A stretch of 32,000 nucleotides of DNA, taken from contig NC_020304.1 of assembly GCF_000341395.1 (NCBI RefSeq), positions 750,001-782,000 of the forward strand, in the 5' to 3' direction. Made by a program: the position numbers and the translations under genes. The notes beneath the pieces were generated by a model, which saw nothing but the letters and a program-made list of their open reading frames with translations, was not told where the DNA came from and did no database searches. Positions 1,766-29,100 of this stretch are shown in pieces (positions within the stretch are counted from its first letter, which is position 1; each line of letters opens with the position of its first letter). The stretch is from Desulfocapsa sulfexigens DSM 10523 (GTDB taxonomy: Bacteria; Desulfobacterota; Desulfobulbia; Desulfobulbales; Desulfocapsaceae).

Positions 1766-1981
1766 AAAAAATCGTCCAAGACGGTTAAGAACAGTACAGG
1801 GCATCTCGAAAATCGTTGTCACTATCCCCCCTTTACCACGCCCCTCGGTGCCACTCAGCTTGAAATCTGAGTGAAACTTTTTGCCACATGAGGGGCAGAC
1901 CATAACCAATCCACCAACATTCGTAGGAAACCTGAGTTTCTGGCCACATCCCGGACATTTTTTTTCAATACAATCGGACAT
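1760..1981 (-). CDS. small zinc-ribbon protein
   Basis: 73-aa ORF with two CxxC pairs (CPGCGQK...CPSCGKK). It is convergent with ppx and overlaps its end by 6 nt. Confidence 0.5.
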   Translation of the reverse strand: MSDCIEKKCPGCGQKLRFPTNVGGLVMVCPSCGKKFHSDFKLSGTEGRGKGGIVTTIFEMPCTVLNRLGRFFS

Positions 1982-2011
1982 AATTAAACCTGCACCATCC
2001 TGCCATTCTCG

Positions 2012-3646: not shown

Positions 3647-3934
3647 AGATTACCTCATATGTAAGTATTTTATTTGCTGGAATTATGAAAATATCATCCT
3701 GTCTTTGAACGCTATCACCAAACATTCACATATAAAAGGATTATTCAAGTATCACTAAAATAGAGGCAACTTTTGCCGGGATGGATATCTGTGCGGAATG
3801 TCAATCTCAACGTCCTCACAATCACATTATCCTTGACCATTCCACCACTATCTGTCACAATGTGGTACATGGTATATTTATCCCGGCATCCTGCCAAAGA
3901 TTTTAAATATACCTTCCTACTATAGGAGCTTGAC

Positions 3935-4336
3935 ATGAAACAGCTATTTATTGGAATGTTCTGTGTTGCTATACTCGCAGCAACATCCTTTTCAGTCTCC
4001 GCCACGCCCCAAAAGCGCTATGACGAAAATACAGGAAGTTGCAGAATTCTGGACAGCGGACCACTTGAATGGGAAAGCCGGGCGTGGGGACAGGGAGGGA
4101 AAGGCTTCAAGCAGGTGTGTAAAAGTTGCCATACCCGTGGAAATGACAAAGGGGCGAGATACCTGTATGAGGAATCGAAATCCTCTAAGGGCTGGAATCG
4201 AATATTTACGACCAGGCGAGCAGAATGTGCAAAGGACGGTTCATGGGCCAAACTTTCCGATGAGCAGTTACTGATGGTCAATGACTATCTCTATCGCTGG
4301 TCATCCACAAGTCTCGATAGAAACGACAGCGCCTGA
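3935..4336 (+). CDS. small periplasmic mono-haem c-type cytochrome
   Basis: 133 aa. AGGAG lies upstream of the ATG. It has a signal peptide (MKQLFIGMFCVAILAATSFSVSA) and a single CKSCH haem-binding motif. Confidence 0.65.
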   Translation: MKQLFIGMFCVAILAATSFSVSATPQKRYDENTGSCRILDSGPLEWESRAWGQGGKGFKQVCKSCHTRGNDKGARYLYEESKSSKGWNRIFTTRRAECAKDGSWAKLSDEQLLMVNDYLYRWSSTSLDRNDSA

Positions 4337-4405
4337 CGTTGATTCTTCTCTTCCGGTTCGGAAGAAAAAAGCTATACGGACGAGTCACTTCTTCAGCAAA
4401 AAAAG

Positions 4406-5578
4406 TCACCTCCACCAAAGAGGAAAAAGTGGCTCTTCCTTTCTTAACTCCTTCAAAGGATAATGGGTTCCACGCCAGTCGATACCCTGGTTGCGAAGAG
4501 TTGTCCAGACAGCTCTCAACACTGTATACACAGTGAGATAAGGTGTCACTAAAGACCAGAGCACTGCAGTCAGCTGAACACCCATCCATTTAGAATTACA
4601 GACAAAAACGGCAATACGACACAGAATCGCAGCGCAAAAAAACACCCTTATCATTCCCTGCGTTAGCAGAACTCCCCATACCGGAACGATGGTGAGCAGA
4701 ATAATTCCCAGGACAGCCACCGTAACATACGAAATTCGATAGCTGTAAAGAGCAAAGATATTCTTCATCAATCCACGAACCATCTCAGAAACACTCCCAT
4801 ACCAACGAACCTGCACAAAATCTCCACCCTGTAAACAATCCTGAGTGAAACCCCGCTGTTTCACTCTCTTCCCAAGCATTATATCATCGATTGGATGCAT
4901 TCTAAAAGTCGAATGCCCACCCAGTTCCCAGTAGACCCTGGTGCGAATCATATTAAAGGCTCCCACGCCGATAAATGCTGTGCTGTTTTTCTTTCTGGCA
5001 TTCCAGGGCCTGAGAAGAAGAAAGAGACCGCCCAGTGCATCAATAATCATAGCATTGAGCAATCCACCTGGGGTCAGATTGCGAAAAATCAGGGAAAGAT
5101 GATCGAGATTTTCATGTCTGAAATAGGCCACGGCCCGAGAAATTGTGGACGATTCCATAATAATATCGGCATCGGTAAAAAGCAGAATATCCCCCTGAGC
5201 CCTTTTGGCACCCAGAGAGAGAGCATGGTTTTTCCCAAGCCACCCCGAAGGGAGCTCTTTCACCTGACTTACCAGAATCTGAGGATATTTCTGACGCAAT
5301 TTTGTAATGACTGCAAAAGTAGCATCAGTAGAACGGTCATCAACAACAATGATTTCTAAGGAGGGATAGTCCTGTTGTAAGACTGAGGACAGGGCAGGCT
5401 CAAGCGTTGTGGCTTCGTTACAGGCTGGCACAACAATAGAGACAAGTGGAACATCTGTCTCCAGTTCCGGTGATGTTTTGTTCAGGTTCTGCATTTTCAG
5501 GCACCCCTGAAAAACTTGCAACATACCTGAGACACTTATGAGAAAAACAAGGAAGGCAAACACCATCAAAAAAGACAT
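4406..5578 (-). CDS. family-2 glycosyltransferase, membrane-anchored
   Basis: 390 aa. VSIVVPACNEATTLEPALSSVLQQDYPSLEIIVVDDRSTD followed by LFTDAD is the GT2 signature. There are hydrophobic N- and C-terminal segments. Confidence 0.8.
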   Translation of the reverse strand: MSFLMVFAFLVFLISVSGMLQVFQGCLKMQNLNKTSPELETDVPLVSIVVPACNEATTLEPALSSVLQQDYPSLEIIVVDDRSTDATFAVITKLRQKYPQILVSQVKELPSGWLGKNHALSLGAKRAQGDILLFTDADIIMESSTISRAVAYFRHENLDHLSLIFRNLTPGGLLNAMIIDALGGLFLLLRPWNARKKNSTAFIGVGAFNMIRTRVYWELGGHSTFRMHPIDDIMLGKRVKQRGFTQDCLQGGDFVQVRWYGSVSEMVRGLMKNIFALYSYRISYVTVAVLGIILLTIVPVWGVLLTQGMIRVFFCAAILCRIAVFVCNSKWMGVQLTAVLWSLVTPYLTVYTVLRAVWTTLRNQGIDWRGTHYPLKELRKEEPLFPLWWR

Positions 5579-8157: not shown

Positions 8158-8219
8158 TGGTACGGAGATCGGAGTCGAACCGACACGGGCCAAAGCCCGC
8201 TGGATTTTGAGCCCAGTGC
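8158..8219 (-). repeat. decayed partial copy (3' ~62 nt) of tRNA-Leu(CAA); distal att-type direct repeat of the island
   Basis: It aligns to 24348-24410 with a 37-nt perfect core (8175-8211), 4 mismatches and a 1-nt deletion. The changes break acceptor and T-stem pairing, so it is not a functional tRNA. Confidence 0.85.
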
Positions 8220-8341: not shown

Positions 8342-8398
8342 AACACATTGACTCTCAGTAAATTTAACTGTACGGTCAAAAAAGGAGGCCTTCACACC

Positions 8399-8641
8399 AT
8401 GTCAAAAATTAAATATCCATATCATGTGCGCCTACCCAAATACATTGGCCCGGCAATCAAGGATGCTCGTAAAAAAAAGCAATGGACCCAAAAGGACCTT
8501 GCTGACTACACCGCAACGAGCGTGAAGTTTATAAGTAATATCGAGCAGGGCAAAACCACAGCACAACTTGATAAAGTTTTTGATTTGATACGTACCGTAG
8601 GGCTGAGAGTTTACCTAACCGAAGGAGATATCGACAAATGA
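8399..8641 (+). CDS. hipB: HipB-like XRE-family HTH antitoxin
   Basis: The HTH segment is WTQKDLADYTATSVKFISNIEQGK. GGAGG at 8384-8388 precedes the ATG at 8399, whereas the track ORF begins at an upstream TTG (8348). The stop overlaps the hipA start (ATGA). Confidence 0.8.
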   Translation: MSKIKYPYHVRLPKYIGPAIKDARKKKQWTQKDLADYTATSVKFISNIEQGKTTAQLDKVFDLIRTVGLRVYLTEGDIDK

Positions 8642-9894
8642 GTAATCTCACAGTCTACTGGGATCAACAAATCGTCGGTACAATATCAAGACACCCAAAA
8701 GGCGAAATCACCTTTCAATACGCTGCCGAGTGGCTCAAAAACAGTGGGCGCCAAATATCACTGTCACTGCCATGTCAAGAAGAACGATTCTCCCCTGGAG
8801 TCAGCACAGCTTTTTTTGAAAATCTCTTTCCCGAGAGTGACGCACGAACCATTCTAGCCTTCAACCATCGATTCGACAAAAAAGACACCTTTGCCTTTCT
8901 CGAAAATTTTGGAGAAGATTGCGCTGGTGCCCTCTCCATTATTCCTGAGAGTGGAGATATTCCTCCTCATTCCAGCAAGTATCGATGTATAGACGTTGAG
9001 CTGCAAAAGGCATTGCAGGCCATCGAATCGGATCCTGGTAAGCACAAATTATATCCTGAGTTAGCTAACGCCCGCCTATCAATTGCCGGAGCTCAAGACA
9101 AATTACCAGTGTATTATGAGAAGGGAAGCTTTTCTCTCCCTGAGAATTCGGCATCGCCTACAACGCATATAATAAAACCTGCCAGTCCTTATTTTCATGA
9201 TATCCAGAGAAATGAAGTATTCTGTATGGACCTGGCCCGGCAGGCTGGCCTCTCAGTCCCTCACTCTGAACTATACACGTTTGCAGGCTATGAACTGTTT
9301 CTTATAGAACGTTATGATCGATTCCACTCAGAGAATAAAGTGAAACGGGTACATCAGGAAGATTTCTGTCAGGCAATGGGACTACCGTTTCACAAAAAAT
9401 ATCAGGAACAGGGAGGCCCAGGCTTTTTACACTGCAGAGAACTCGCCGAGGAGCATTTATCAGCCGATATATCAGTGGTAAAACAAAAGCTGACCGCTGT
9501 CATGACTTTCAATTTTCTCATAGGCAACAATGATGCGCATGGTAAAAATTTCTCAATTATTCACAAAGATACTATTACGCTCGCACCGTTCTATGATTTA
9601 GTTTCAACACAGGTTTATCCTAATTTGGATCGCAAACTTGCCATGGCAATAGGTAATACCTACAGGCACGATCGAGTGAACCAAGGTGCTTTTGTCAAAC
9701 TCAGTAAGGATATGAAACTTCGGCCTGAAAAGGTTTTTGAAATTATCACAGCAACTGCTCAAAAAATTGGAAAAATATACGAGAAGGTACTGGCTATACA
9801 TGAAAAGCAGTATGGTAAGGCAGTGATTTATTCGGATCTCCATACTGTGCTGCTCACAAATCTTGCTCGAATACAGGAAATTATGAGGAATTAG
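8638..9894 (+). CDS. hipA: HipA-family serine/threonine kinase toxin
   Basis: 418 aa. The HipA hallmarks are present: SIAGAQDKLPV and the catalytic-loop segment GNNDAHGKNFS. Confidence 0.9.
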   Translation: MSNLTVYWDQQIVGTISRHPKGEITFQYAAEWLKNSGRQISLSLPCQEERFSPGVSTAFFENLFPESDARTILAFNHRFDKKDTFAFLENFGEDCAGALSIIPESGDIPPHSSKYRCIDVELQKALQAIESDPGKHKLYPELANARLSIAGAQDKLPVYYEKGSFSLPENSASPTTHIIKPASPYFHDIQRNEVFCMDLARQAGLSVPHSELYTFAGYELFLIERYDRFHSENKVKRVHQEDFCQAMGLPFHKKYQEQGGPGFLHCRELAEEHLSADISVVKQKLTAVMTFNFLIGNNDAHGKNFSIIHKDTITLAPFYDLVSTQVYPNLDRKLAMAIGNTYRHDRVNQGAFVKLSKDMKLRPEKVFEIITATAQKIGKIYEKVLAIHEKQYGKAVIYSDLHTVLLTNLARIQEIMRN

Positions 9895-9914
9895 CCCTTC
9901 TTCACCCAAGAATA

Positions 9915-9946
9915 TTGTCAAGGATTGCTTGACAACTGAATTTTTC
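9915..9946 (+). terminator. hairpin plus T-run downstream of hipA
   Basis: TTGTCAAG (9915-9922) pairs with CTTGACAA (9928-9935) around a 5-nt loop. It is followed by CTGAATTTTT. Confidence 0.45.
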
Positions 9947-10201
9947 ACAAGCTCTGCTGGCCCAAAAATGACGCAAACAAAAAAGAAAGCATCACATTTC
10001 GGGCTATTGATTGAAGCCGAGCTGGCAAACATGGAAGATGCCGTCCAAGCGGGATACGAGAGGTAAGGTGATGGTGATATGACATCGCTTTTTCAGACGA
10101 CCTTAAAAAATCGATTTCCTGATCGAGAAAACTTAGATGGGGGGCCAGAAACAACAAAGCTGCAATCACTAGATCAACTAATGATTACAGCTTCTTGTCA
10201 T

Positions 10202-10224
10202 TGGTGCGGAGGTCGGAGCCAAAC
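10202..10224 (-). repeat. third, short remnant of the tRNA-Leu 3' end (internal att-like site)
   Basis: TGGTGCGGAGGTCGGAGCCAAAC compares with tRNA 24348-24372 TGGTGCCGGAGGTCGGAATCGAACC and with the 8158 copy TGGTACGGAGATCGGAGTCGAAC. It has the same orientation as both. Confidence 0.55.
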
Positions 10225-10325
10225 ATTATCGTATTTACCATTACATTCCATGTACATACTCATGGTGTCGTTTTTATACTCAACCCAAATACCCACTTTC
10301 ATACCCACTTTATCCAGACACAATG

Positions 10326-10361
10326 CCCCCCCCTTTTGATCAAATCAGTGGGGGGGGGGGG
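10326..10361. repeat. C8 ... G12 homopolymer pair forming a potential hairpin
   Basis: CCCCCCCC (10326-10333), then 16 nt containing the palindrome TTGATCAA, then GGGGGGGGGGGG (10350-10361). It lies ~150 bp upstream of the operon start. Confidence 0.7.
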
Positions 10362-10512
10362 AGCTTCCATGGTATACATTTAATAAAAGTGCCGACGTAT
10401 AAAGATACTGACGTTATTGACATTAAGTAAGAAATAGAACATTAACATATCTACATCAAAAAGCATCAAACGGAATAGTTTGGTAAAATTTTATAGAAAA
10501 TAAACACTATAT

Positions 10513-11631
10513 ATGTCAGCAAAAGTGAAGAATTCTCATATAAATATCAGCAAAGAATTACTTATAGAAAACTATATTTCTGATACAAGGCCATGGATTA
10601 TAGGGTACTCAGGAGGTAAAGATTCAACATTATTATTACAATTGGTTTTTGAAATCCTCTCTGACGATAGGGTTAATAATGAAAAGCCAATTCACATAAT
10701 AACCTCAGATACTGGCGTAGAACCGCCTAACATACTAACGCATGTCAAAGAAAACCTGGCAAATATTCAAACGTTTATCGACAAACAAAACTTACCAATC
10801 AATATCCATCAGGTAGTTCCCTCTTTAGATAACAAATTCTGGGTAAATCTCATTGGGAGAGGCTACCCTTCACCAACTAGATGGTTTCGCTGGTGTACAT
10901 CTAAAATGAAAATTAAGCCAACAAAAGGAATAATAGAGCAGTTGGTTGAACAACACGGTAGCACTATATTGCTACTAGGGACAAGAAAAGATGAGAGTCA
11001 AGCCAGAAAGCGTTCGATAGAAAAACGTGAGTATAGCACTAGAAGACTCAACCCTCATCATGAAATCAAAAACACACTAGTTTTGGCCCCCATTTCTGAC
11101 TGGACAACAGACGAAGTTTGGGAGTACCTGTTCAACGAACTTCCACCCTGGGGAGGGAATCATGATGTTCTTTTTGATCTGTACAAACAAGCAAATAGCG
11201 GTGAATGCCCCTTGGTTGTTGACCTTAACACCCCATCGTGCGGGGGAAGTCGATTCGGTTGCTGGACCTGTACCGTCGTTAAAACAGACAAGTCAATGGA
11301 AAGCTTCATCGAGCAGGGAGCCGTTTGGATGCAACCATTGAATAACTTTAGAAATTGGATTAAAGAGATTAGGGAAGATGAACATCGACGGAACCATTAC
11401 AGAAGAACTGGAGAACTGGGCAACGGCCCGTTCAATTCAACAACAAGACAAGAGATTCTAGAAAATTTACTTGATACTGAATCAAAATTACCCGACAACA
11501 TTGAATTAATTAGTGATGATGAAATTGTTCACATTCAAAAAATATGGACAGAAGAGTTTGATGTAATGAACTCTGCCTTAAAAATTGCCAACAAATTTAA
11601 AAGGCAACCAATGAAAAGAAGAAAAAAATAA
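10513..11631 (+). CDS. DndC/SspD-type PAPS-reductase-fold (PP-loop) DNA sulfur-modification protein
   Basis: 372 aa. It has the PP-loop YSGGKDST, then LIGRGYPSPTRWFRWCTSKMKIKP, and then ECPLVVDLNTPSCGGSRFGCWTCTVVKTDKSM. These are the motifs I associate with DndC. Confidence 0.85.
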   Translation: MSAKVKNSHINISKELLIENYISDTRPWIIGYSGGKDSTLLLQLVFEILSDDRVNNEKPIHIITSDTGVEPPNILTHVKENLANIQTFIDKQNLPINIHQVVPSLDNKFWVNLIGRGYPSPTRWFRWCTSKMKIKPTKGIIEQLVEQHGSTILLLGTRKDESQARKRSIEKREYSTRRLNPHHEIKNTLVLAPISDWTTDEVWEYLFNELPPWGGNHDVLFDLYKQANSGECPLVVDLNTPSCGGSRFGCWTCTVVKTDKSMESFIEQGAVWMQPLNNFRNWIKEIREDEHRRNHYRRTGELGNGPFNSTTRQEILENLLDTESKLPDNIELISDDEIVHIQKIWTEEFDVMNSALKIANKFKRQPMKRRKK

Positions 11632-11822
11632 TGGATAAAAAATATCTAACTAGAAAATTATCTGATCTTTCAAAAGATCACGATGTCCCTGAGTACCTTA
11701 TCCCTCAACTCATACATTTAATGGAGAGATATCCAAATATTGCAATACGAGGTGCGAAGTCTAGTTTAAAAACAGATATTGAGAAAATAATCACTAATGC
11801 AATGAAGGAAGGAAACTTATAG
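11631..11822 (+). CDS. 63-aa protein of unknown function, translationally coupled on both sides
   Basis: Its start overlaps the DndC-like stop (TAATG), and its stop overlaps the GTG start of the next gene. I recognised no motif. Confidence 0.4.
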   Translation: MDKKYLTRKLSDLSKDHDVPEYLIPQLIHLMERYPNIAIRGAKSSLKTDIEKIITNAMKEGNL

Positions 11823-13840
11823 TGCATATCATATCCATAACATTAAAAAATATTTTTTCTTATTATGGGGAAAAGATTTTTGACTTGTCACCCCCAAATA
11901 ATGGCAAAAAAAACATTGTCATTATACGAGGACGAAACAACCAAGGTAAAACAAGTTTTTTAAATAGCATCAAATTACTTTTTGGTGGCGTTTCTGAAGA
12001 TCTATTGCAAAAAGTACCGAGAGGGATAACGACAAAACAATACATCTATGGCGCAAGTGATAGATGGTGGGGAATATTGAATTATCGTGCCAAGGAAAAA
12101 GGAGTAAGTAACTGTTCAATTTCTATTAAATTATATACCGAAAACGGAGAGGCTTTAATAACCAGAAAGTGGTCAAATATTACCAATACTTCTTTCAATG
12201 AAATGGTCATGGTTGATGACCCTATTGAAGGTTATCTTGAAAATGATCAAGCGCAAGAGTATCTAAATCGAATATTACCTATTGAATATCTACCATTTTT
12301 CTTTTTTGACGGTGAAGAAGTACAACATCTTGCAGAAGCAAATACTAATCAAACCATCTCTAAAATGGAGCAATTGTTAAATATCCGGCCCGTTGAGAAT
12401 GTTTTGTCTGCAATAAAATCAGTAAAAGGGTCTTGGAAGAGTCAGAGCATGGACAGACATGCGGTAGCTGACTTGGAGAAAGCAAAGAATAAAAAACAAG
12501 AATTTATATCAGAAATAGCAGGACTAGAACAAGAAAAAGATGATCTCGAAAATGATTTAGCGGAAGAAGAGGAGGCCTTAAAACGAACCGAAAGGATGCT
12601 AGATATTATTGGCGGTCATACAGGTGTTGAAAATAGAGCAATATTAAAAACAGAAGTAAAGCATCTAGAGGAGACTCAAGATGAACTTTTCGCAAAAATA
12701 TCAGATTTTTTTGGTGGTGATGCTTTTCTTATGCTTAACCCTAAATTGATAGAAAAGTCACTTAAAATCATTCAAAAAAACATTCACAACTTCAACCAAC
12801 AACAACTCACTTTACTAGGTACTCTACAAAATCAGTTACCAATATTATTAGAACAGCCACCATATTCATCTCCTCCACTAACGACAAACCAAATTGCTTT
12901 CTATCAGCAACGAATAAAAAAGCAAATTGAAGTATTTCAACAACCAATAAATAGTGAAGAAACTTTTAATCTCGATCCATCCAGAGCTCAAAAACTTTAT
13001 GACACTCTCATAAGATATTCAGACGATCCTGATGCATTTTCTGAGTTAAGAAAGTTAGTATCAAAGGCAAGAAATATTCAAATTGCAATAAATCAAAAAA
13101 ATGATCTTCTAGACAATGCAAAACACCTTGCAGAAGAGGAGAAAAAACATTTTCAAGAGTTAAAAGAACAAGAGTCGATCATCAAAAAGACGTTATTTGA
13201 AATTAATGACAGTATAAGAGATAAAGATAGCCAAATAACTCAAATAGCTTCCAGCTTATCTGAAATAACTCAGAACATTAACCGTCTAGTTGATTCTGTA
13301 AAAGTCGCAGAAGACTATAGAGGTAGATATGACTTAGCAACCCGAACTCAAAATATGCTTGAAAGTTTTAAACATGACTTAAAGAAAGAAGCAAGAGAGC
13401 AACTTGAAATCGAAGTTAATAAGAATCTATCTACAATACTAGACTCCAACACATTAATTAATACAGTAAAAATTAGTGATGAATTCCTAATTACTTACCT
13501 AGATCAAAGGGGTAACTCTATCGGAATGGGTACAATTTCAGCGGGTATGAAACAAATCGCAGCAACTTCTCTTTTATGGGCTTTAAAAACAGTTTCAAAT
13601 AAAGAGTTTCCAGTAATTATAGACACTCCACTAGCTAGAATCGACGCACAACATCAAGCAAACTTACTGGAACGATACTACCCACACGCTAGCAAGCAAG
13701 TGATAATTCTGCCTACTGATTCTGAATTAGATGAATCTAAATCAAAGAAACTTCAAAAACACTGTTATAAAACATTTGAGCTGAAGAATCCCAGTGGTAC
13801 CAATACAGAAATAGTGACATTAGAGGTGCCCAATGGCTGA
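11822..13840 (+). CDS. DndD/SspC-type SMC-like ATPase
   Basis: 672 aa. It has an N-terminal Walker A (GRNNQGKTSF), a long charged coiled-coil middle, and a C-terminal FPVIIDTPLARIDAQHQANLLERYYPHASKQVIILPTDSEL, which matches the DndD C-terminal signature as I recall it. Confidence 0.8.
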   Translation: MHIISITLKNIFSYYGEKIFDLSPPNNGKKNIVIIRGRNNQGKTSFLNSIKLLFGGVSEDLLQKVPRGITTKQYIYGASDRWWGILNYRAKEKGVSNCSISIKLYTENGEALITRKWSNITNTSFNEMVMVDDPIEGYLENDQAQEYLNRILPIEYLPFFFFDGEEVQHLAEANTNQTISKMEQLLNIRPVENVLSAIKSVKGSWKSQSMDRHAVADLEKAKNKKQEFISEIAGLEQEKDDLENDLAEEEEALKRTERMLDIIGGHTGVENRAILKTEVKHLEETQDELFAKISDFFGGDAFLMLNPKLIEKSLKIIQKNIHNFNQQQLTLLGTLQNQLPILLEQPPYSSPPLTTNQIAFYQQRIKKQIEVFQQPINSEETFNLDPSRAQKLYDTLIRYSDDPDAFSELRKLVSKARNIQIAINQKNDLLDNAKHLAEEEKKHFQELKEQESIIKKTLFEINDSIRDKDSQITQIASSLSEITQNINRLVDSVKVAEDYRGRYDLATRTQNMLESFKHDLKKEAREQLEIEVNKNLSTILDSNTLINTVKISDEFLITYLDQRGNSIGMGTISAGMKQIAATSLLWALKTVSNKEFPVIIDTPLARIDAQHQANLLERYYPHASKQVIILPTDSELDESKSKKLQKHCYKTFELKNPSGTNTEIVTLEVPNG

Positions 13841-15314
13841 TATATATACCGACCAAATTGATGAGCAACTAATTTCTGATGTCCTTCATTATGGCTTTAA
13901 AACCAAAACAGCACCAAAATTAAGAGTACTCCGACTTGCGCTAGCAAAATCATTACAGATTACAACTCCCCCTAATTCTGACTTTGATAAAATACCTGAA
14001 AAAGGTTCTGAGTATAGTCTTAAACAAGTTACAGGCCGTGACTCTGAGAATGACCTTGATGATTCAGTTCGAGCTATGCTTTCAATTTATCATGAGGATG
14101 ATTTCTTTAACAAAGAGAAAGATTATCGAAAACATTTACAGCGACACATTAGAAGAGGATTAAAAGAGATAAGAACAAGCTGGGCAAGAGGACACGACTT
14201 TTCAAGCTACTTAGAACATGAACTCTTACCAAACCTGACAATTGATGATGATCTTGAAAGGAATACCTTATCAAACCAAAATCTTATCGATTCGCTAGAG
14301 GAAATTGGAGTCAATGGACGGATCAATGAAAGAGTTGAAGGATCTCGAATTAGTCGCTTCTTTCTCTATTTTGAAAATGCTAATGATTATGATCAATTAA
14401 AAAAAGGTTTAGGAAAATTAGCAATGCTTCTTGGTCTAGGTGACAAAGGAGTACTAATGCAACCCACGAATCAACCAAGAATAATTTCTCTTGATGTTCC
14501 CAGGGAGCAATCTAGTTGGAAAACAATTCAAGCATCATCGTTCTGGGACTGGACAAAAACAGATGAAATAAAGAAGTATGTTCTTCCAATATGGCTTGGA
14601 CAAGATGTTATTGGAGGCAACTACTCATTTGACTTACAGGAAGCACCCCATATTTTAGTGTCAGGAACAACAGGCAGCGGGAAAAGTGTTTGTTTACACA
14701 GTATAATATTGTCCCTACTAGCAACCTTGCCCAAAGGAGACATTGAATTAGCTCTTATTGACCCCAAAAGGGTTGAGTTTGTTAGATACGAGTCCACCTC
14801 CCAATTATATGAAGGAGGGGTTGTCTATTTAGTTGATCAGGCTGCTAATTTATTAGAGGAATTAGTTGATGAAATGGAAAGACGACATCAATTGATGTAT
14901 GAAGCGAATGTAACAAATTTATCAGAAGGGAGGGGTCAAAACAAAATAAACCTTCCATACATCGTTGTAGTAATAGAAGAACTCGCCGATCTATTAATGC
15001 AGTCTAGTGATATTGAAACCCCGTTAGTCAGGTTGGCCCAGAAAGCTCGATCCTGTGGTATTCACTTAGTTTTAGCTACTCAAAGACCGGATTCAACCAT
15101 ACTCACAGGGTTGCTCCGAAGTAATATACCTGGAAGAATTGCTCTTCGAGTACAAAAGCACACGGAATCAAATATTATTTTAGATGAAAAGGGGGCTGAG
15201 GCATTATTAGGAAGGGGAGATATGTTAGTAAAAATACCTCCCGATATTGCCCCCAAACGTGTTCATGGAGCAAAGTTGACGCAAGATGATTTAGAGCAAA
15301 TCAAACATGTTTAG
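13833..15314 (+). CDS. FtsK/SpoIIIE-type ATPase with an N-terminal, possibly DndE-like, domain
   Basis: 493 aa, overlapping the upstream gene by 8 nt. The C-terminal half has Walker A (VSGTTGSGKSV), Walker B (VVVIEELADL) and IHLVLATQRPDSTILTGLLRSNIPGRIALRV. The N-terminal ~120 aa (LRVLRLALAKSLQITTPP...GSEYSLKQVTG...VRAMLSIYH) resembles the DndE pattern from memory only. Confidence 0.7.
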   Translation: MADIYTDQIDEQLISDVLHYGFKTKTAPKLRVLRLALAKSLQITTPPNSDFDKIPEKGSEYSLKQVTGRDSENDLDDSVRAMLSIYHEDDFFNKEKDYRKHLQRHIRRGLKEIRTSWARGHDFSSYLEHELLPNLTIDDDLERNTLSNQNLIDSLEEIGVNGRINERVEGSRISRFFLYFENANDYDQLKKGLGKLAMLLGLGDKGVLMQPTNQPRIISLDVPREQSSWKTIQASSFWDWTKTDEIKKYVLPIWLGQDVIGGNYSFDLQEAPHILVSGTTGSGKSVCLHSIILSLLATLPKGDIELALIDPKRVEFVRYESTSQLYEGGVVYLVDQAANLLEELVDEMERRHQLMYEANVTNLSEGRGQNKINLPYIVVVIEELADLLMQSSDIETPLVRLAQKARSCGIHLVLATQRPDSTILTGLLRSNIPGRIALRVQKHTESNIILDEKGAEALLGRGDMLVKIPPDIAPKRVHGAKLTQDDLEQIKHV

Positions 15315-15326
15315 AGGATCTGTCTT

Positions 15327-16496
15327 ATGGATAGTGTAATAACGATTTATGATTTCAAGCTACTTGCATTAACAATTGATAGAATTGGTCCATTTCAAGA
15401 GAAACAATTTGAAATTGATTTTACTGATAAAAACAACAATCCCTGCAATTTTTATCTTTTTGTTTCTCGTAATGGGTCAGGCAAAACTACTATTTTCGAG
15501 ACCTTAACATCCTTATTAGGATTGTTAGACAACCCTTCTCCAACTGAATTTCACCAAGAAGACTTGGACCTAAATCAAGGGAGGGCTCAACTTGATATTT
15601 GGCTCAGACTCCGATGGCAAGGCAAAGAGCAAGCAATAGTTTTTTCGATCGTCGGAGGAAGAATAGGCGAAGAATTTTCATTCAAAGTTTGGGATAAAGA
15701 GACCTTAGAAGAATACAATGCAGAGAGTTGGCACCGAATCAGCTATATATCCCAAACTTCAGGTTCTATCAAGAAGCCAAGCCCAAGTTCAGAACTGGTT
15801 GAGACTCTACTTGCTGTTATACAAGCAGGAAAAAAGTCAACTCCAAGTGATTTTGGGGATAGCCAAATAGCTCTTCCTACAGTTTTATACTTTTCTGCGT
15901 ATCGAGATATTCCTGATATTACTGAAGAACCACATACAAAACCAAACTACTCTGCTAGAAGTATTACCCAACCTAAACACTGGTCTTATAATGCAAGTCA
16001 TCGGTTTGAACCGCACGACCAAAATTGGCATGGTTCTCTTGATAATCTACTAGTCTGGCTTAAATGGCTTAGTGATGGAAGATTTAAGAAAGCATGCGAT
16101 TTGATCAACTCCAAAGTGTTTGCCGGAACTGATAAATATCTAAAAGATGTCAGAAGAGACCCCCCGGAAGCTATTGTCTCATGCTCTACTGGAACTCACC
16201 GTCTTGACCGTTTGAGCAGTGGTGAAAAAAGCCTTGTTCACTTATTCCTCAGGCTTGGTTCTCATATGACCCAGCATACCATAGTAATAATAGATGAACT
16301 AGAGGCCCATTTGCATCCACGATGGCAGCATGCTCTATTTAAATCTCTTAAAGAATTCGCTTCAAGTAATAGCGGAATAACAATTTTATCCAGCACTCAC
16401 TCCACCGATATTCTACACACTTTTTCTGAAAGCATAGATATTCCAGAGAATGGGCTTATCAAGGGTGGCACAATCATTGATAAAGGTTTAAAATAA
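15327..16496 (+). CDS. ABC/AAA_21-type ATPase (AriA / OLD-ATPase-like)
   Basis: 389 aa. It has Walker A (SRNGSGKTT), an ABC-signature-like LSSGEKSL, and Walker B plus H-loop (IVIIDELEAHLHP). Confidence 0.75.
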   Translation: MDSVITIYDFKLLALTIDRIGPFQEKQFEIDFTDKNNNPCNFYLFVSRNGSGKTTIFETLTSLLGLLDNPSPTEFHQEDLDLNQGRAQLDIWLRLRWQGKEQAIVFSIVGGRIGEEFSFKVWDKETLEEYNAESWHRISYISQTSGSIKKPSPSSELVETLLAVIQAGKKSTPSDFGDSQIALPTVLYFSAYRDIPDITEEPHTKPNYSARSITQPKHWSYNASHRFEPHDQNWHGSLDNLLVWLKWLSDGRFKKACDLINSKVFAGTDKYLKDVRRDPPEAIVSCSTGTHRLDRLSSGEKSLVHLFLRLGSHMTQHTIVIIDELEAHLHPRWQHALFKSLKEFASSNSGITILSSTHSTDILHTFSESIDIPENGLIKGGTIIDKGLK

Positions 16497-16499
16497 CAG

Positions 16500-17372
16500 A
16501 TGGTTAGCTTCAAAGACATTCCTAATGATTTAGAAATCTCTTCACTATATGAGGGGGGCATCAAGGTCCTTGTTGAATCGAATGATGATTTAGTCATTTT
16601 AAGAGATAAATGGTTCTTCAATCATAAAGATAAATTGTGTTTTGAGAGTGTTAGTGATGAAGAAGGCAGCAGCGGAGGTTGCCAGGAAGTAATAGCTAAA
16701 GTAAAACGCTACAGACGAGCCCACACCACTGCTTTTGGTATTGTTGACAGGGATGTTCTTCTCAGTGATGAAGATCATAGAGATGATTTATGGTGGGAAA
16801 CTGATGATGAGAAATTTAGAGCATCTACGCCCTATGGTAATCAAATTTTTATATTAAGTCGCTGGGAAATTGAAAACTACTTACTCAAACCACTTGCAAT
16901 TAAAGCATTTGTTAAAGATAAGTTATGTTCTCCTGCGGCACCTCAACTAGAGACATCAGACTTTCTAGGGCAGGCTGATGATTTAATTGTAATTACTAGC
17001 CTGAGTACTATTGCCTCAGCTAAGTCTAATTCAGCACCTAAACCAAAGTGGGGGCTAGACAAGTCTGGGGCGGAATTAAAAAACTTAATTGCAACGGAAC
17101 TCAACGTGTCTATAGATGAAGTTGAGGAGCATTTTGAAAAAATCAAAACCTTTGCAACCACCCATAATGACGATGAGTGGGATGGATTAACGAGGTTATT
17201 AGATGGAAAACGTATCTTCCACAGACTTAACATCTACCTAAAAGAAAAATTTACTCTTAGAACTCTTGATTTACTTGAGGAAAAAGGTGTACTTGCCGGG
17301 TATGTGAATTCATATGATCAAATAGATAAGGAATTAAAACAAATGGTTGATGGTTTTCTTGCATCCCATTAA
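16500..17372 (+). CDS. DUF4435/TOPRIM-like protein (AriB / OLD-nuclease-like)
   Basis: 290 aa, starting 3 nt after the ATPase stop. VLVESNDD (TOPRIM Glu), FGIVDRDVLL (DxD) and WEIENYLL are the motifs I associate with DUF4435 partners of AAA_21 ATPases. Confidence 0.6.
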   Translation: MVSFKDIPNDLEISSLYEGGIKVLVESNDDLVILRDKWFFNHKDKLCFESVSDEEGSSGGCQEVIAKVKRYRRAHTTAFGIVDRDVLLSDEDHRDDLWWETDDEKFRASTPYGNQIFILSRWEIENYLLKPLAIKAFVKDKLCSPAAPQLETSDFLGQADDLIVITSLSTIASAKSNSAPKPKWGLDKSGAELKNLIATELNVSIDEVEEHFEKIKTFATTHNDDEWDGLTRLLDGKRIFHRLNIYLKEKFTLRTLDLLEEKGVLAGYVNSYDQIDKELKQMVDGFLASH

Positions 17373-18135
17373 CCAAATGTATGCTCCATATCATAGTAAA
17401 TTGAACACCAATACACCTAGACAAGTAACACCTGTAACAACTGTAAAACAATAATATACACACAATTAAAGTATATAATTTCAGTTAATTACAAAAGGAT
17501 ACTTCAAACTATCTTCTGAAATAATCAGTTGTTCGACTAGCTAATAATTCCTTTTCAATAGACCTTGTTTGTCTTGCGCTCAAATTGGCCTTCCTTTGGA
17601 ATCTCCTAAGCTTTTTACCCATTTTTATTGCTTCCTTACTATTATCCAGCCAGGCTCTTAACAATCCATAACTCGTTATCATTCTAGACAACAATTTGCT
17701 TTTCTCTTTACTCCTGTAAAAACTGAACATGATTTGTTCCAGCTTTTTTTGATCAATTTCAGGAATCTTCAAGTATCTATTTTGTAACATCAGGAATACT
17801 TCTTTCGAGGAAGAGATTTCGGATATATTTTCGATTTTGAGAACTCTTTTTATTGTGGCTTTTCCATGCAATGAGAATTCTATCCTGCATACCTTCCCTG
17901 CATCAGCGTCAGTCTCTATCTCTACAACCTTGCTATCCCCAACATATTCTCTCTGATAATTGTCGCTCCTTCTACCTTTCTCCTTTGCCTGCGTATTCCA
18001 GTGAATCCGGCCACCCAGTCCACTTGATTCCGGCCAGTAATTCCACGGCAAAGCGGCCACCCAGTCCAGAGGATTCCGGCCAGGGTGTCGGAGCGTAGCG
18101 ACGCGAATATTTCCTTCTTACTCTGTGTGTTGCTC

Positions 18136-18873
18136 TCACGTCAAGCGTGCTTTCTTTTTTCTCATAGATTCTCCTTTCAGTTTGATTTTGTGAGCGGCAT
18201 GTACCAGACGGTCAAGAATGGCGTCGGCTAAAGTCGGATCTCCGATCCGCTCATGCCAGTGCTCTACCGGTAATTGACTGGTTACCAAGGTAGATTTGAG
18301 GCCGTGTCTGTCTTCCAGTATTTCTAGTAAATCATGGCGTTGCTCCTGGTTGAGTGTGGCCAGTCCATAGTCATCAAGTACCAATAGATCTGTTTTTGAA
18401 TAGACAGTCAGTAACTTCAGATAACGGCCATCCCCCTTGGCAAGAGCCAGATCTTCAAAGAGTTTACTCAGACGGAGATAGAGAGCACTATAGCCTTCTC
18501 TGCATGCCTTTTGGGCCAAGGCACAGGCAAGATAGGATTTGCCGACTCCAGTGGGGCCGGTAATAAGCAGATTGGTATGTTCCTTTATCCAGTTGCAGTC
18601 AGCCAGCCTGGTTACCAGTGACCTATCCAGACCACGCGGATGACGGAAGTCTACATCCTCGATTGAGCCATCCTGCCGCAGCTTTGCCTTTCTGAGTCTG
18701 GTCTGAAGTTTTCTGGTTTCCCTGACCGCCTGCTCGCGGTCAAGTAACAGACCGAGGCGTTCTTCGAAACCCAGGTTATCTGCAGTGTCCATGTCCATCT
18801 GTTCCTGGAGTGCTGCGGCCATGCCGGTGAATCGAAGAGTTGTGAGTTTTTCAAGTGTTGGATGCAGAAGCAT
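18136..18873 (-). CDS. istB: IS21 helper ATPase IstB
   Basis: 245 aa. It has Walker A (GPTGVGKSY) and Walker B (LLVLDD), giving the typical IstB/DnaC-like layout. Confidence 0.9.
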   Translation of the reverse strand: MLLHPTLEKLTTLRFTGMAAALQEQMDMDTADNLGFEERLGLLLDREQAVRETRKLQTRLRKAKLRQDGSIEDVDFRHPRGLDRSLVTRLADCNWIKEHTNLLITGPTGVGKSYLACALAQKACREGYSALYLRLSKLFEDLALAKGDGRYLKLLTVYSKTDLLVLDDYGLATLNQEQRHDLLEILEDRHGLKSTLVTSQLPVEHWHERIGDPTLADAILDRLVHAAHKIKLKGESMRKKKARLT

Positions 18874-18893
18874 TTTATCGTTTCCTTTTTGTT

Positions 18894-20447
18894 TTAGTGG
18901 GTTGAGGGAGAATAATACTGAGAGCCACGGATATTTGCGTGATTAACCGGCTTGTCCTCTGTAGCCGGCTTCGGTAGTGGCTTCTGATCAAGGCCGCTTT
19001 TGAGTATGGATTCCACTGAGCGGTAAGAAAGGGCGTTGATATGCAGGGCCCGATGGCATGCTGCCTCAAGGCGTGAATCTCCATAGGCTTTGCCAAGACG
19101 GAGAATGCCCAGCAAAGTGCGATAGGCCTGTTGTGGGTGAGCTCTTTTTACAAGAAGCGTCTCTGTGAGGCAGAGTGTCTCCGGCCCGACCTTGGCAGCC
19201 CAGCGCTTGAACCTGTCCGGATTCCACTCCATGTACTTTCGGTGGTTGACAGGCATATGCTCTTTGACGGTAGTGTGGTGCCCTCGTTGATTCTCCCGGA
19301 TGTGACTGGCCACCCGTTTACCACGAAAGTAACACTCAACCGTGCTTTTGGTATAGCGCACCTCAATCTGTTTTTTGACCAGGTTATATGGAACGGAATA
19401 GTAATGTCCCTCGACCTCCACATGATAGTCGATATGTACAGTGGCCTTTTTCCAGTAGGATAATTCATAAGGGCTGGCTGGAAGTTGTTTCAGGGCAGGT
19501 TTGTCCAGTTCTTCAAAGCGACTTTTACGGCTGCCGGATAACTTCTTGAAAGGCTTGTTGTTCAGTTGCTCAAGGAGTTTGCCTATTTCGCGATTGAGAT
19601 CGTCAATGTTGAAGAAAGTATGTTTACGGAGTTTTGCCAGAATCCAGCGTTCCACCAGCAATACACCGGCCTCAGCCTTGGCCTTGTCCCTTGGTTTTCT
19701 AACCCTTGCAGGCAGCACCACGGTTTGATAATGTCGGGCCAGATCATGATAAGTGGGATTAAGGTCAGGTTCGTAACGGCAGGCTTTTGTGACGCCACTT
19801 TTCAGGTTATCTGGAACGACAACTTCCGGAACCCCACCCAGGAAAGCAAATGTACGGACATGTGAACCGATCCAATCCTCAATCTTCTGGCTGGGAGTGG
19901 CCTCAGCATAGGTGTAGTTGCTGGCACCAAGGACCGCAACAAAGACCTGAGCCTTTGTGATTTCTCCGGTGTGTTGGTCAACGACATCGACGGTTTGGCC
20001 TGCGTAGTCGACAAACAGTTTCTCACCGGCTCGGTGTTCATGGCGCATGACCAGATCAAGCTTGCCGGCCCAATCCCGGTAACTATGGCAGAACCAGCTG
20101 TACTGGTAGCCGTCAGGATGCTGCTCTTTGTATTCCTGCCACAGCAGGTTCAGGGTAACCCCTCGTTTGGATTGGAGCTCTTTGTGGATCTCAGAGAAAT
20201 CTGGAATTAGCCGGCTTGTCCCCGGTGGAGGCGGTGGAGGGAAAAGGGTTTGTTCAAGGCTGCTGTCGCTTAGGTCGTCAGGAAGGGGCCAACCCAGATC
20301 TGCTCTTTTGGTTCGTTGTAAATAGTCACTTACCGTGCTGCTGCCAATACCGCAGCTACGGGAAATTTCACGGTTACTGTGCCCAAGTTCATACTTGAGT
20401 CGTAGTACCTCTCTAATTTTTCGCATAGATAACCTCTTCTTCGGCAT
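18894..20447 (-). CDS. istA: IS21 transposase IstA
   Basis: It has an N-terminal HTH (MRKIREVLRLKYELGHSNREISRSCGIGSSTV) and a DDE core. The start is placed at the ATG at 20447 behind AAGGAGGG; the track ORF starts 8 codons upstream. Confidence 0.9.
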   Translation of the reverse strand: MPKKRLSMRKIREVLRLKYELGHSNREISRSCGIGSSTVSDYLQRTKRADLGWPLPDDLSDSSLEQTLFPPPPPPGTSRLIPDFSEIHKELQSKRGVTLNLLWQEYKEQHPDGYQYSWFCHSYRDWAGKLDLVMRHEHRAGEKLFVDYAGQTVDVVDQHTGEITKAQVFVAVLGASNYTYAEATPSQKIEDWIGSHVRTFAFLGGVPEVVVPDNLKSGVTKACRYEPDLNPTYHDLARHYQTVVLPARVRKPRDKAKAEAGVLLVERWILAKLRKHTFFNIDDLNREIGKLLEQLNNKPFKKLSGSRKSRFEELDKPALKQLPASPYELSYWKKATVHIDYHVEVEGHYYSVPYNLVKKQIEVRYTKSTVECYFRGKRVASHIRENQRGHHTTVKEHMPVNHRKYMEWNPDRFKRWAAKVGPETLCLTETLLVKRAHPQQAYRTLLGILRLGKAYGDSRLEAACHRALHINALSYRSVESILKSGLDQKPLPKPATEDKPVNHANIRGSQYYSPSTH

Positions 20448-20985
20448 GAGCCCTCCTTGAATTTTATTCAAAAAGGCACTCTCTACCAGTTGGTTCTATG
20501 CGTCGCTACTCCCTATTTGGGGTGACCGGATTCCTCTGGAATCACTGGCCGGAATGAAATGGAATCGGTGGCCGGAATCACGTGGAATGAGTGGCCGGTT
20601 TACTCTGGAATCGGTGGCCGGAATCGTCTGGAATATGCATTTGCCCGATAAAAAGTAGTATTGATTTGAAATGTCCTATCTCCAGACCACTTCCTGTAAT
20701 AAGTATTCATAAACCACTCAAGATACTCTTTAGCTTCCTCAGAACTCTGAAAAACTACTTCCATTGTGATATCTATCCGTGTGAGTGTGCCAAAATTCCT
20801 CGATTGTATGATCTCCATAAATTCATCCGTTGCTCCACTCACATCAAGCTTTGAATTATAACTGTGATATTTCCCCGTATTGCTTGCTGGGTAAATCAAA
20901 CTCGGAGTTCTTTCACTTCTACAAAGAGGTGGCTCAGTTTGTTTGAACAGTATTCTGTCATTTTTAAGTGGAGCCTCTGCCTAAA

Positions 20986-21816
20986 TTAAGCTGCCTTTTC
21001 AATTGGTGGCAACATTATGTTGTAGGCCTCATCTGGAGTTCTTTTTTCCAATCCGGAATGTGGTCTTGAGCGGTTATACCAATCAAAATACTGCATGATA
21101 GACCTTCGAGCCTCATTTACTGTATCATAAGCATGCAAATAAACACGTTCGTATTTCACTGATCTCCATAGTCTTTCAACGAATACATTGTCTCGCCAAG
21201 CCCCACGTCCATCCATGCTGATCTTGCAGCCCTTTTCGTGCACTACCTCAATAAACTCTTGTGCGGTAAACTGACTTCCCTGGTCGGTGTTGACAATCTC
21301 TGGGATGCCATGATGAACAAAGGCTTCTTTCAGCACATCAACTGCATGGCAGGCCTCGAGGGTAATAGAAAGTTTTGAGGCCAACACTTTCCGGCTTGCC
21401 CAGTCAACAACAGCCGTCAGATACACAAATCCTTTGGCCATGGGAATATAAGTCGTATCCAGAGCCCAGACCTGGTTGGACTGATCGATACTCTTTCCTC
21501 TCAATAGATACGGATAGATTTTGTGACCTGGATGTTTTTTACTCGTTCCCGGTTTCCTATATAACGCTTCAACTCCCATGCGTTTCATCAGGGTTCCAAC
21601 ATGTTTGCGCCCGACAGAAACACCATCTCGGTTCAGTTGATCACGGAGCATCCTTGCCCCCATAAACGGGTGCTCCAAATGGAGTTCATCAATTTTCCGC
21701 ATCAGCACCAAGTCGTTTTCGTTAACTGGTTTGGGTTTGTAATACACGCTACCACGACTGATCTCAACGACTTGAGCTTGTCGTGTAATCGAAAGAGTAT
21801 GGGCTGGATCTATCAT
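20986..21816 (-). CDS. IS3 transposase OrfB (DDE integrase core)
   Basis: 276 aa with rve-type motifs ([18 protein letters not shown], the RSRPHSGL tail). The frame is open upstream as far as the slippery site. Confidence 0.9.
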
Positions 21817-22115
21817 CGCTTTACGCTCAGCAACCCCACTTTGGTGAGCGCACCTTCTAAAAAATCGTTTTCCAGCGTTAGCTGGCCTATTTTCGCATGT
21901 AGGGTCTTTATATCAACTGCTGGCTCTTTTGAAGTACCTTTGGCAAATACAGAGTCTGCCTCTTCTGTCAGTTGCCTTTTCCAAGCGGTGATCTGGTTGG
22001 GATGCACTTCAAACCGTTGCGCCAGTTCTGCTAGTGTCTTGTCTCCAGCCATCGCTGCAAGGGCCACTTTCGCCTTGAATGCGGCTGAGTGTTTTCTTCT
22101 CGTTCCTTTTGCCAT
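21813..22115 (-). CDS. IS3 transposase OrfA (HTH)
   Basis: 100 aa with a typical IS3 OrfA N-terminus ([16 protein letters not shown]...[22 protein letters not shown]) and a leucine-zipper-like end. Confidence 0.9.
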
Positions 22116-24156: not shown

Positions 24157-24347
24157 TGACGTCACCATGAAAAGTGGGTAAAAGAAAGGAGGGTATTCGG
24201 TTCCTCTGCTGCCATACCCACGGATATACCCACTTTTCACGACAGATGTCAACGGATAAATTTGGACTACCCTGGAAACAAAAAACCCGCAAACCATTTC
24301 TGGATGCGGGTTAAACGGAACGCTTAGGACGTTCTCGGAATATGTAC

Positions 24348-24434
24348 TGGTGCCGGAGGTCGGAATCGAACCGACACGGGCCAAAGCCCGCTGGATTTTG
24401 AGTCCAGTGCGTCTACCAGTTTCACCACTCCGGC
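24348..24434 (-). tRNA. tRNA-Leu (anticodon CAA), class II, encoded CCA
   Basis: The reverse complement is GCCGGAGTGGTGAAACTGGTAGACGCACTGGACTCAAAATCCAGCGGGCTTTGGCCCGTGTCGGTTCGATTCCGACCTCCGGCACCA. It has a 7-bp acceptor stem, an anticodon stem CTGGA/TCCAG with loop CTCAAAA, a long variable arm and a T-arm GTCGG-TTCGATT-CCGAC. Confidence 0.9.
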
Positions 24435-28983: not shown

Positions 28984-29100
28984 ATATAGAGTATGACTTA
29001 AGAGCCAGAGAACTCTTCAGCACTATACAGAGTATGACTCAAGAGCCAGAGAACTCTTTAGCACTATATAGAGTATGACTCAGGATCCAGAGTACAGCTC
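28984..29100. repeat. 41-bp tandem repeat, ~2.8 copies
   Basis: The units are 28984-29024 (ATATAGAGTATGACTTAAGAGCCAGAGAACTCTTCAGCACT), 29025-29065 (3 mismatches) and a diverging partial unit from 29066. They lie in a ~780-bp stretch with no convincing ORF. Confidence 0.8.

Follow-up and report, generated by a model that had tools for sequence, protein, structure and literature searches.

A gene at 13833-15314 of a 32,000-nucleotide (nt) stretch of the Desulfocapsa sulfexigens DSM 10523 chromosome (NC_020304.1, positions 750,001 to 782,000; this whole stretch is the window, and its first letter is position 1) encodes a single protein in which a DndE-type domain is joined to a complete FtsK motor. 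We call this protein DndE::FtsK. An exact protein look-up gives AGF77231.1, whose source is this chromosome and which carries only the NCBI label 'FtsK/SpoIIIE domain-containing protein'. The gene is the fourth of six in a Dnd-type cassette (Table 1), and we lean slightly towards a reading in which the DndE subunit of a phosphorothioate (Dnd-type) modification machine has been fused to an FtsK-family double-stranded DNA (dsDNA) translocase, with an ABC-Toprim pair as the effector.

That the two domains share one gene is confirmed. The open reading frame (ORF) is single and unbroken, and its ATG lies within the last codons of dndD, overlapping the dndD stop by 8 nt (cccaATGGCTGA), with GAGGTG 7 nt upstream of the start. 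Homologues of AGF77231.1 number more than 100 proteins of 457-514 amino acids (aa), 48-61% identical to it over 99-100% of the query and spread over many taxa; clustering at 50% identity leaves about 49 full-length fusion clusters. One AlphaFold model, built on a 52-sequence alignment, spans the entire chain with a mean pLDDT (the predicted local distance difference test) of 89.4 and a predicted template modelling score (pTM) of 0.79. One might suppose that a frameshift, a misassembly or a wrong start call has run a separate dndE into an ftsK-like gene; but the full-length homologues come from independent genomes, complete ones among them, and from metagenomes, so an artefact of assembly or reading frame is scarcely conceivable and we rejected it.

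What, then, sits in front of the motor? An earlier note on this DNA, made from the letters alone, had been reminded of DndE by the strings LRLALAKSL, GSEYSLKQVTG and VRAMLSIYH near the N-terminus. These motifs are indeed present and align with conserved motifs of free DndE proteins, and the Pfam, hhalign and AlphaFold/Foldseek results, together with the topology, all agree: residues 1-116 are confirmed, on sequence profiles and a predicted fold, as a DndE double ribbon-helix-helix (RHH) head, predicted to bind DNA. In Pfam, residues 23-115 match PF08870 (DndE) over model positions 18-105 of 111, at 29.1 bits (E 1.3e-6) against a gathering cut-off of 25 bits. The AlphaFold model of residues 1-135 (pLDDT 88.9) places a strand at 3-7 with helices at 8-21 and 30-41, a second strand at 57-62 with helices at 63-67 and 76-87, and then a long helix, 95-116, which carries the motif LQRH[IV]RRGL, invariant in 52 orthologues. 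Strand-helix-helix twice, followed by a long helix, is the topology given for all DndE proteins by Rakesh, Aravind and Krishnan (NAR 2024; PMC10853773). When the head was compared with the Protein Data Bank (PDB) by Foldseek, as the earlier note had proposed alongside a profile comparison, the top 14 matches were all DndE (4LRV, 5WTU, 7X4E), with probabilities of 0.98-1.0, template modelling (TM) scores of 0.63-0.68 over about 110 columns and 12-16% identity, after which the list fell abruptly to noise. F-plasmid TraY was also among the matches (TM 0.60). TraY is a known structural relative of DndE.

The sequence profiles lead to the same place by another route. A profile of the N-terminal region, built from 25 family members and searched against 1.84 billion representative proteins, found only 101 proteins: about 49 full-length fusions (445-531 aa), some shorter proteins and about 8 free-standing ones. 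Most of the remaining matches are below 400 aa and are probably fragments. The free-standing matches are 120-137 aa long; eight of them were tested against PF08870, and six pass its cut-off. In hhalign the fused domain and free DndE proteins pair with a probability of 99.5% (E 1.8e-22, 29% identity over 125 columns), and the alignment sets PKxxVLRLAL, GxEYxLxQxTG and LQRHIRRG of the fusion against their free-DndE counterparts; the nearest free relatives form a small group of DndE proteins of 128-137 aa. Direct searches of the PDB by sequence, with the N-terminal 232 residues and with the family profile, returned no DndE, and their best hit was a chance match of 12.6 bits; thus the link to solved DndE structures becomes visible only through Pfam, intermediate free DndE proteins and the comparison of folds.

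The fused domain is also the sole DndE of its cassette, since, when every ORF in the six frames of the window is searched with a profile made from free DndE proteins alone, only the fusion ORF matches (E 1e-16); no second DndE was found there, which bears out the earlier impression that no stand-alone DndE is evident. Mean entropy is 1.32 bits in the head and 1.31 bits in the motor, so the head is conserved as much as the motor and is under selection rather than a decaying remnant. Like the canonical DndE proteins of E. coli B7A (4LRV) and Natronorubrum bangense (7X4E), it has the fold of two RHH units and a C-terminal helix, belongs to PF08870 and is encoded directly after dndD; those proteins, however, are free and 110-130 aa long, whereas the DndE described here forms the N-terminus of a motor protein of 493 aa and is 12-16% identical to the solved structures. 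The term 'nicked-DNA-binding' describes a property carried over from E. coli DndE.

Within the head, the first RHH strand, ADIYT, is strongly conserved in the family (0.88 bits), and along the second (residues 57-64) the conserved G58, Y61 and L63 alternate with the variable positions 57, 62 and 64 (2.3-3.2 bits). The conserved first strand contrasts with PMC10853773, where the DNA-binding interface of DndE is described as highly variable. Specificity determinants of the fused DndE, if there are any, may lie only on this second strand.

A short flexible tether follows the head. AlphaFold gives it a pLDDT below 50 at residues 136-142, and no other named segment of the protein varies as much in sequence: its mean entropy is 3.13 bits, that of each domain about 1.3. 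Beyond it, residues 148-480 are confirmed, again from sequence matches and the predicted fold, as a complete FtsK alpha+beta motor with its catalytic residues intact. PF01580 (FtsK_SpoIIIE) covers residues 249-419 (E 3e-43, 148 bits) and the FtsK structure 2IUU matches by sequence at E 2.6e-51. The beta domain carries Walker A, GTTGSGKS, at residues 278-285 (nt 14664-14687), Walker B, VVVIEELADL, with E382 and E383, the sensor ATQRPD (415-420), NIPGRIAL with R435, and GRGDML; in 52 orthologues GTTGSGKS, E382/E383, TQRPD (416-420), R435 and GxGDM are invariant. In Foldseek the motor aligns with P. aeruginosa and E. coli FtsK (2IUT, 2IUS, 6T8B/G/O) at E 3e-31, with target TM scores of 0.75-0.81 (0.77-0.81 for 2IUT and 6T8O) over 367-387 columns and 32-34% identity, the matched alpha+beta chains being 380-408 residues long. 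The earlier statement that the gene after dndD encodes a complete FtsK-type P-loop translocase core therefore stands on both the Pfam match and the fold.

Because the beta domain has only about 240 residues and the alignment runs over 367-387 columns, residues 148-230 or thereabouts would be the FtsK alpha domain, an assignment that we infer from the modelled fold. Pfam run on residues 120-246 alone returned no family, FtsK_alpha included, and weak PF17854 matches occur in the alpha region of some homologues. The earlier count of some 230 N-terminal residues ahead of the motor thus divides in two: residues 1-116 are DndE as supposed, and residues 148-230 are to be given, as the putative alpha domain, to the motor itself. 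At the other end the chain stops at residue 493, 13 residues past the last motor strand and at the same place as its orthologues, which leaves no gamma domain, the winged helix that reads KOPS/SRS; and as the N-terminus is by prediction a soluble DndE fold, a membrane anchor is absent from the modelled protein. DndE::FtsK therefore shares with cellular FtsK/SpoIIIE (2IUT, 2IUS, 6T8B/G/O) the alpha+beta motor and the motifs GTTGSGKS, ATQRP, NIPxRIA and LLGxGDM, but differs in having neither the membrane domain nor the long linker nor gamma; its DNA-reading element would be N-terminal and of RHH fold; and it is encoded in a mobile defence-type cassette, whereas cellular FtsK is encoded at a division locus.

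A motor of this family might also be a DNA-transfer translocase of the TraB/TcpA type that happens to lie beside dnd genes. There is some weak likeness to TraB, at 62 bits, and TcpA structures match the motor at E 7e-24 with 25-26% identity and a root-mean-square deviation of 6-8.5 Å. But the TraB score falls far below the NCBIfam plasmid_TraB cut-off of 800 bits, cellular FtsK is a nearer structural relative than TcpA, and the gene always stands between those for DndD and the ABC ATPase, its start here overlapping dndD. The earlier note had also raised the possibility that the nearest homologues would lie in transfer operons unrelated to Dnd genes; in fact all 13 other contexts are Dnd-type cassettes, and none of them holds a relaxase, type IV secretion genes or other transfer genes. 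Family score, contexts and structural ranking together effectively refute the conjugative translocase, to which we give next to no credence.

The genes upstream of the fusion are of Dnd type. DndC scores 394 bits against TIGR03183 (cut-off 290), matches PF01507 and keeps both its PP-loop and its cysteine cluster, and DndD scores 278 bits against TIGR03185 (cut-off 246) and matches PF13476; both are thus above the NCBI equivalog cut-offs. Between them lies a small gene that matches PF20306, Sp-DndD, a Pfam family from the group behind PMC10853773, at 49.1 bits (cut-off 27.2); it overlaps both neighbours, the stop of dndC with its own start and the start of dndD with its own stop. All along the cassette the gene junctions are tight, with overlaps of 1, 1 and 8 nt followed by gaps of 12 and 3 nt, and since every junction is an overlap or a gap of at most 12 nt, the six translationally coupled genes point to one operon. 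GC content is 34-39% in the cassette and 44-50% outside it in the window. Scanned for promoters and terminators, 9900-17700 gave fewer promoter-like sites than a shuffled control, an uninformative result.

Joining Sp-DndD to DndC moves the end of the TIGR03183 alignment from 383 to 444 of 447 (+7 bits) and that of PRK06850 from 387 to 458 (+11.5 bits), and in the loci that have no separate small gene (L085, L089, L090) DndC is about 70 aa longer, 445-456 against 372-393 aa. From these sequence comparisons, Sp-DndD looks like the split-off C-terminal tail of DndC.

In the PADLOC library, DndD is matched from end to end by the model PDLC02719 'PbeC', and at 1567 bits the fit is such that the model might have been built from this sequence or a near-identical one. 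PbeABCD does resemble the cassette in pairing an ABC ATPase with a DndE-family protein and a small protein. However, the window holds no PbeA (a fusion of HKD nuclease and superfamily 2 (SF2) helicase), DndD has no CxC motif, its only two cysteines being non-adjacent, and it passes the DndD equivalog cut-off; the PbeABCD assignment was therefore rejected, and automated defence annotation likely mislabels this DndD as PbeC.

The two genes that close the cassette encode an ABC ATPase, with matches to PF13175 (61.4 bits, above its cut-off) and PF13304 (50.8 bits), and a DUF4435 protein, which matches PF14491 at 28.4 bits against a cut-off of 27. PADLOC scores the ATPase at 57.5 bits as AriA, with PtuA models scoring higher, and the DUF4435 protein at 37 bits (E 1e-9) as AriB. 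Across 18 orthologues the DUF4435 protein keeps E26, D83-R84-D85, E123 and E125-N126 invariant; the invariant Glu and DxD would be the Toprim catalytic set, and an active nuclease is expected from this sequence pattern. The pair thus recalls PARIS in its two-gene architecture, AAA_15/21 and then DUF4435, in its Pfam families and in its intact Toprim acidic residues, but sequence similarity to PARIS is low, and PARIS is a stand-alone two-gene system whereas this pair is built into a Dnd-type cassette.

The cassette recurs as a whole. We compared 13 other loci: L001 and L002, from a search of genome contigs, and L081-L087, found through exact protein look-ups, a set of nine that includes Methylomonas sp. 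LL1 and metagenome-assembled genomes (MAGs) of a Desulfobulbaceae, a Magnetococcus and a Desulfobacteraceae; L088-L090, from a search with the DUF4435 protein; and L093. (One of the two patterns in the genome-contig search, AExLLGxGDM, proved generic to FtsK: 78 of the 80 loci were motor-only, matching at most residues 111-493 and leaving the DndE region unaligned, and only L001 and L002 were kept.) From dndD onward the gene order is the same in 13 of 13, and so is the adjacency of DndD and DndE::FtsK, while the flanking genes are different at each locus. Orthologues of the cassette proteins align over their full length at 30-60% identity; those of the ABC ATPase (37-60%) are encoded directly downstream of DndE::FtsK in every locus, and those of dndC (51-60%) come first in the cassette in seven of nine loci by tblastn. 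All told, dndC is present in each of the ten loci with an intact cassette 5' end, and in L093 it lies on the opposite strand. Even the most divergent fused protein, P0220 of L093, is encoded in the cassette. The DUF4435 protein tells the same story in reverse: a search from it found only 44 homologues, and three contexts taken from those at 30-40% identity (Paraburkholderia fungorum, a Magnetococcales MAG and a metagenome contig) proved to be the same cassette, so that in the contexts examined this DUF4435 clade was met only inside it. The six-gene cassette moves between genomes as one unit.

Two of these loci have peculiarities of their own. L093 holds, at 383-3740, a second pair of small protein and DndD-like protein, followed by a 381-aa protein (3710-4879) that has no Pfam match and in which a DndE domain is not detectable (E 0.58). 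The pair stands head-to-head with the DndE::FtsK module, with the lone dndC between them, and may represent a duplicate of the scanning core that works with another partner. L084 (Methylospira mobilis CP044205.1) is a decayed cassette broken by an insertion sequence (IS): about 48 codons of dndC are left, two ORFs (125 and 458 aa) are called in the dndD region, with a gene for an rve-family transposase (347 aa) immediately after it, and the ABC ATPase appears in the gene calls as two pieces. DndE::FtsK itself is encoded intact.

How much of this had been seen before? The earlier note took a DNA pump joined to the DNA-recognition subunit to be mechanistically new, and there it overstated the case, since HerA/FtsK domains fused to DndE beside a DndD-type ATPase are already mentioned in PMC10853773, which cites Krishnan et al. 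(NAR 2020) for them. That paper places the DndE-fused motors in HerA/FtsK clade 3, together with some DndH motors, and proposes DndD and DndE as the DNA-scanning core of Dnd systems. The clade-3 fusions have the same architecture and position as the gene described here; they receive one sentence in the text available, with no experiments and no reference to the ABC ATPase-DUF4435 pair or to D. sulfexigens. A further difference concerns the alpha domain, which the text restricts, apart from this, to cellular FtsK and clade-2 DndH; our fold alignment implies that the fusion would have one too. We found no mention of an ABC ATPase-DUF4435 pair with Dnd-type genes in the readable text of PMC10853773 (figures excluded) or in the other papers retrieved, nor any experiments on a DndE::FtsK fusion in the literature searched. 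The fusion architecture is thus already catalogued and the D. sulfexigens locus is an undescribed member of it; the strict six-gene organisation with its dedicated PARIS-like pair may go beyond the published text.

How might such a machine work? By homology to FtsK, the motor would form a hexameric ring on duplex DNA and move along it using ATP. The N-terminal DndE heads would read the DNA in place of FtsK-gamma and, acting with the ABC ATPase DndD, would stop or position the complex at target sites, where DndC would then insert sulfur. As the cassette has no dndA, that sulfur would be supplied by a housekeeping cysteine desulfurase. The ABC ATPase-Toprim pair would act as the nuclease effector, in place of DndFGH, PbeABCD or SspE, and the whole cassette would be a self-contained defence island.

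The same parts could be arranged otherwise. The motor resembles SspH/DndH motors as strongly as cellular FtsK and could therefore serve restriction rather than modification: as in DndH/SspH, it would pump unmodified invader DNA to the DUF4435 Toprim nuclease, the DndE head would only report whether a site is modified, and modification would need just the DndE head, DndD and DndC. The best PADLOC matches of the motor, and the top matches in that defence library, are indeed SspH models (C-terminal motors, E 2e-56 and 5e-40, over residues 172-472), the clade-3 placement in PMC10853773 brings the fused motors together with some DndH motors, and the ABC-Toprim pair accompanies the fusion in all 13 other loci. 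Nevertheless the fused head is the only DndE of the cassette, so that the protein must join in any modification, and the motor scores equally against cellular FtsK. DndH/SspH proteins, for their part, share the FtsK/HerA-type motor but are about 1600-1800 aa long, with helicase-like, methylase-like and restriction endonuclease domains ahead of a C-terminal motor; such domains are absent here, as are genes for DndF/G or SspF/G. We regard a motor devoted to restriction as unlikely. Less probable still, and in our judgement quite doubtful, is that the DndC-like enzyme makes some other modification or none, and that DndD and DndE::FtsK form a 'HerA/FtsK capture' device which catches the DNA of plasmids or phages while it is being transferred or packaged and passes it to the Toprim nuclease. 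PMC10853773 does allow DndD-DndE cores to recruit other modifications and treats HerA/FtsK capture as a general anti-invader theme; DndC is of the short form here, and neither dndA nor dndB was found in the window. But DndC lies about 100 bits above its equivalog cut-off with PP-loop and cysteine cluster kept, it aligns to nearly the full DndC model once Sp-DndD is joined to it, and dndC persists across the related loci as described, the opposite-strand copy of L093 included.

Several results weigh against the phosphorothioate reading that we favour. Pfam families of the dndA or dndB type were found neither among the window ORFs nor in the related cassettes. Both genes are dispensable in some systems, and IscS is established as able to replace DndA in E. 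coli B7A, a further point against a DndC that makes no phosphorothioate. The literature search found no paper linking D. sulfexigens to phosphorothioate. The Foldseek E-values of the head are modest (0.026-0.24), so that its identification leans on the specificity of the match list and on the sequence profiles; taken with the failed PDB sequence searches, they mark it as a divergent DndE and not a close one. The motor matches PADLOC SspH (E 2e-56) and NCBIfam FtsK (E 1.7e-56) equally well. In the PDB, AriA (8UX9) matches the ABC ATPase at E 2e-5 but only over the C-terminal 95 residues, its C-terminal third, and solved AriB gave no sequence match to the DUF4435 protein; the analogy to PARIS would accordingly be one of architecture only.

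Table 1. Features of the window that bear on the DndE::FtsK gene, its cassette and the surrounding island (positions in nt of the window).
Feature	Position	Strand	Description
Island left end	8163-8219		57-nt direct repeat of the 3' part of tRNA-Leu, 95% identical to 24354-24410
Gene 1, dndC	10513-11631	+	PP-loop (SGGKDS) PAPS-reductase-type sulfurtransferase, short form, 372 aa
Gene 2, Sp-DndD	11631-11822	+	63 aa; PF20306
Gene 3, dndD	11822-13840	+	DndD ABC ATPase; TIGR03185, PF13476
Gene 4, DndE::FtsK fusion	13833-15314	+	493 aa; AGF77231.1 / WP_015402929.1; ATG start
DndE domain	13833-14180	+	residues 1-116; PF08870, AlphaFold, Foldseek, hhalign
Flexible tether	14226-14273	+	residues 132-147; low pLDDT, high entropy
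FtsK alpha domain (putative)	14274-14522	+	residues 148-230; fold alignment only
FtsK beta (RecA-like) motor domain	14583-15272	+	residues 251-480; PF01580, PDB match
Gene 5, ABC ATPase	15327-16496	+	389 aa; AAA_15/AAA_21 type, AriA/PtuA-like; PF13175, PF13304
Gene 6, DUF4435 protein	16500-17372	+	290 aa; Toprim-type, AriB-like; PF14491
P4-type integrase gene	22948-24384	-	adjoins tRNA-Leu
tRNA-Leu(CAA)	24348-24434	-	integration site, island right end

The cassette is cargo of a 16.2-kb island inserted at tRNA-Leu, which also carries HipBA, IS21, IS3 and the P4-type integrase; the integrase ORF overlaps the tRNA gene, and its true start is therefore probably further downstream. Just inside the left end of the island and upstream of the cassette lie genes for a HipB-like helix-turn-helix antitoxin (8348-8641, +) and a HipA-family kinase toxin (8638-9894, +; HipA_C, E 3.5e-54). 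Just after the cassette comes an IS21-family element (18136-20471, -) made of istB (18136-18873) and istA (18894-20471), with four repeats spaced by 23 nt (GGTGRCCGGAAT...TGGAATC) at its end, 20521-20635, and two related repeats of 30 nt at 18008-18083; we take them for the probable multiple terminal repeats of IS21. A 183-aa ORF between cassette and IS21 (17509-18060, -) has no Pfam match, runs into the repeats at 18008-18083 and is perhaps not a genuine gene. An IS3-family element is present in two copies, 20924-22115 and 27133-28324, which are 6209 bp apart and identical over their first 300 nt. Each has the same two ORFs, one of 100 aa (HTH_Tnp_1) and one of 276 aa (rve), and the stretch from one copy to the other contains tRNA-Leu and two integrase genes. 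The second of these, a tyrosine-recombinase gene (24646-25758, +; 370 aa) on the other side of tRNA-Leu, suggests that another integrated element, or its remnant, abuts the same tRNA gene. Farther on, three tandem 41-nt repeats (28983-29105; the second and third 93% and 73% identical to the first) occupy the intergenic space upstream of an OmpA-like gene (29590-30207, -).

As comparative genomics has already recorded the architecture, the locus is of value for experimental follow-up and annotation rather than as a discovery. We put forward only tentatively, as something possible yet short of probable, that the six genes make up a single, self-contained system of defence whose class has yet to be named. 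In it a hexameric FtsK pump with DndE heads would track along DNA with DndD, writing phosphorothioate marks (via DndC) and checking them, and the ABC-Toprim pair, met only in this cassette, would fire on unmarked or invader DNA. If so, phosphorothioate-linked restriction modules would number a fifth type, beside DndFGH, PbeABCD, SspE/SspFGH and DndI, and an FtsK motor would be seen for the first time in the service of epigenetic site scanning. The strict linkage of the ABC-Toprim pair also points to a cassette of about 6.9 kb, compact and transferable, that combines modification and effector functions. An open question for all Dnd systems is how short target motifs are found, and only partly modified, across a genome. 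FtsK is among the fastest known DNA pumps, and a DndE head mounted on an FtsK motor is thus a natural experiment on the Dnd target search, in which a single polypeptide holds both scanning, through K284 of Walker A, and recognition, through the RHH strands, and each could be mutated separately.

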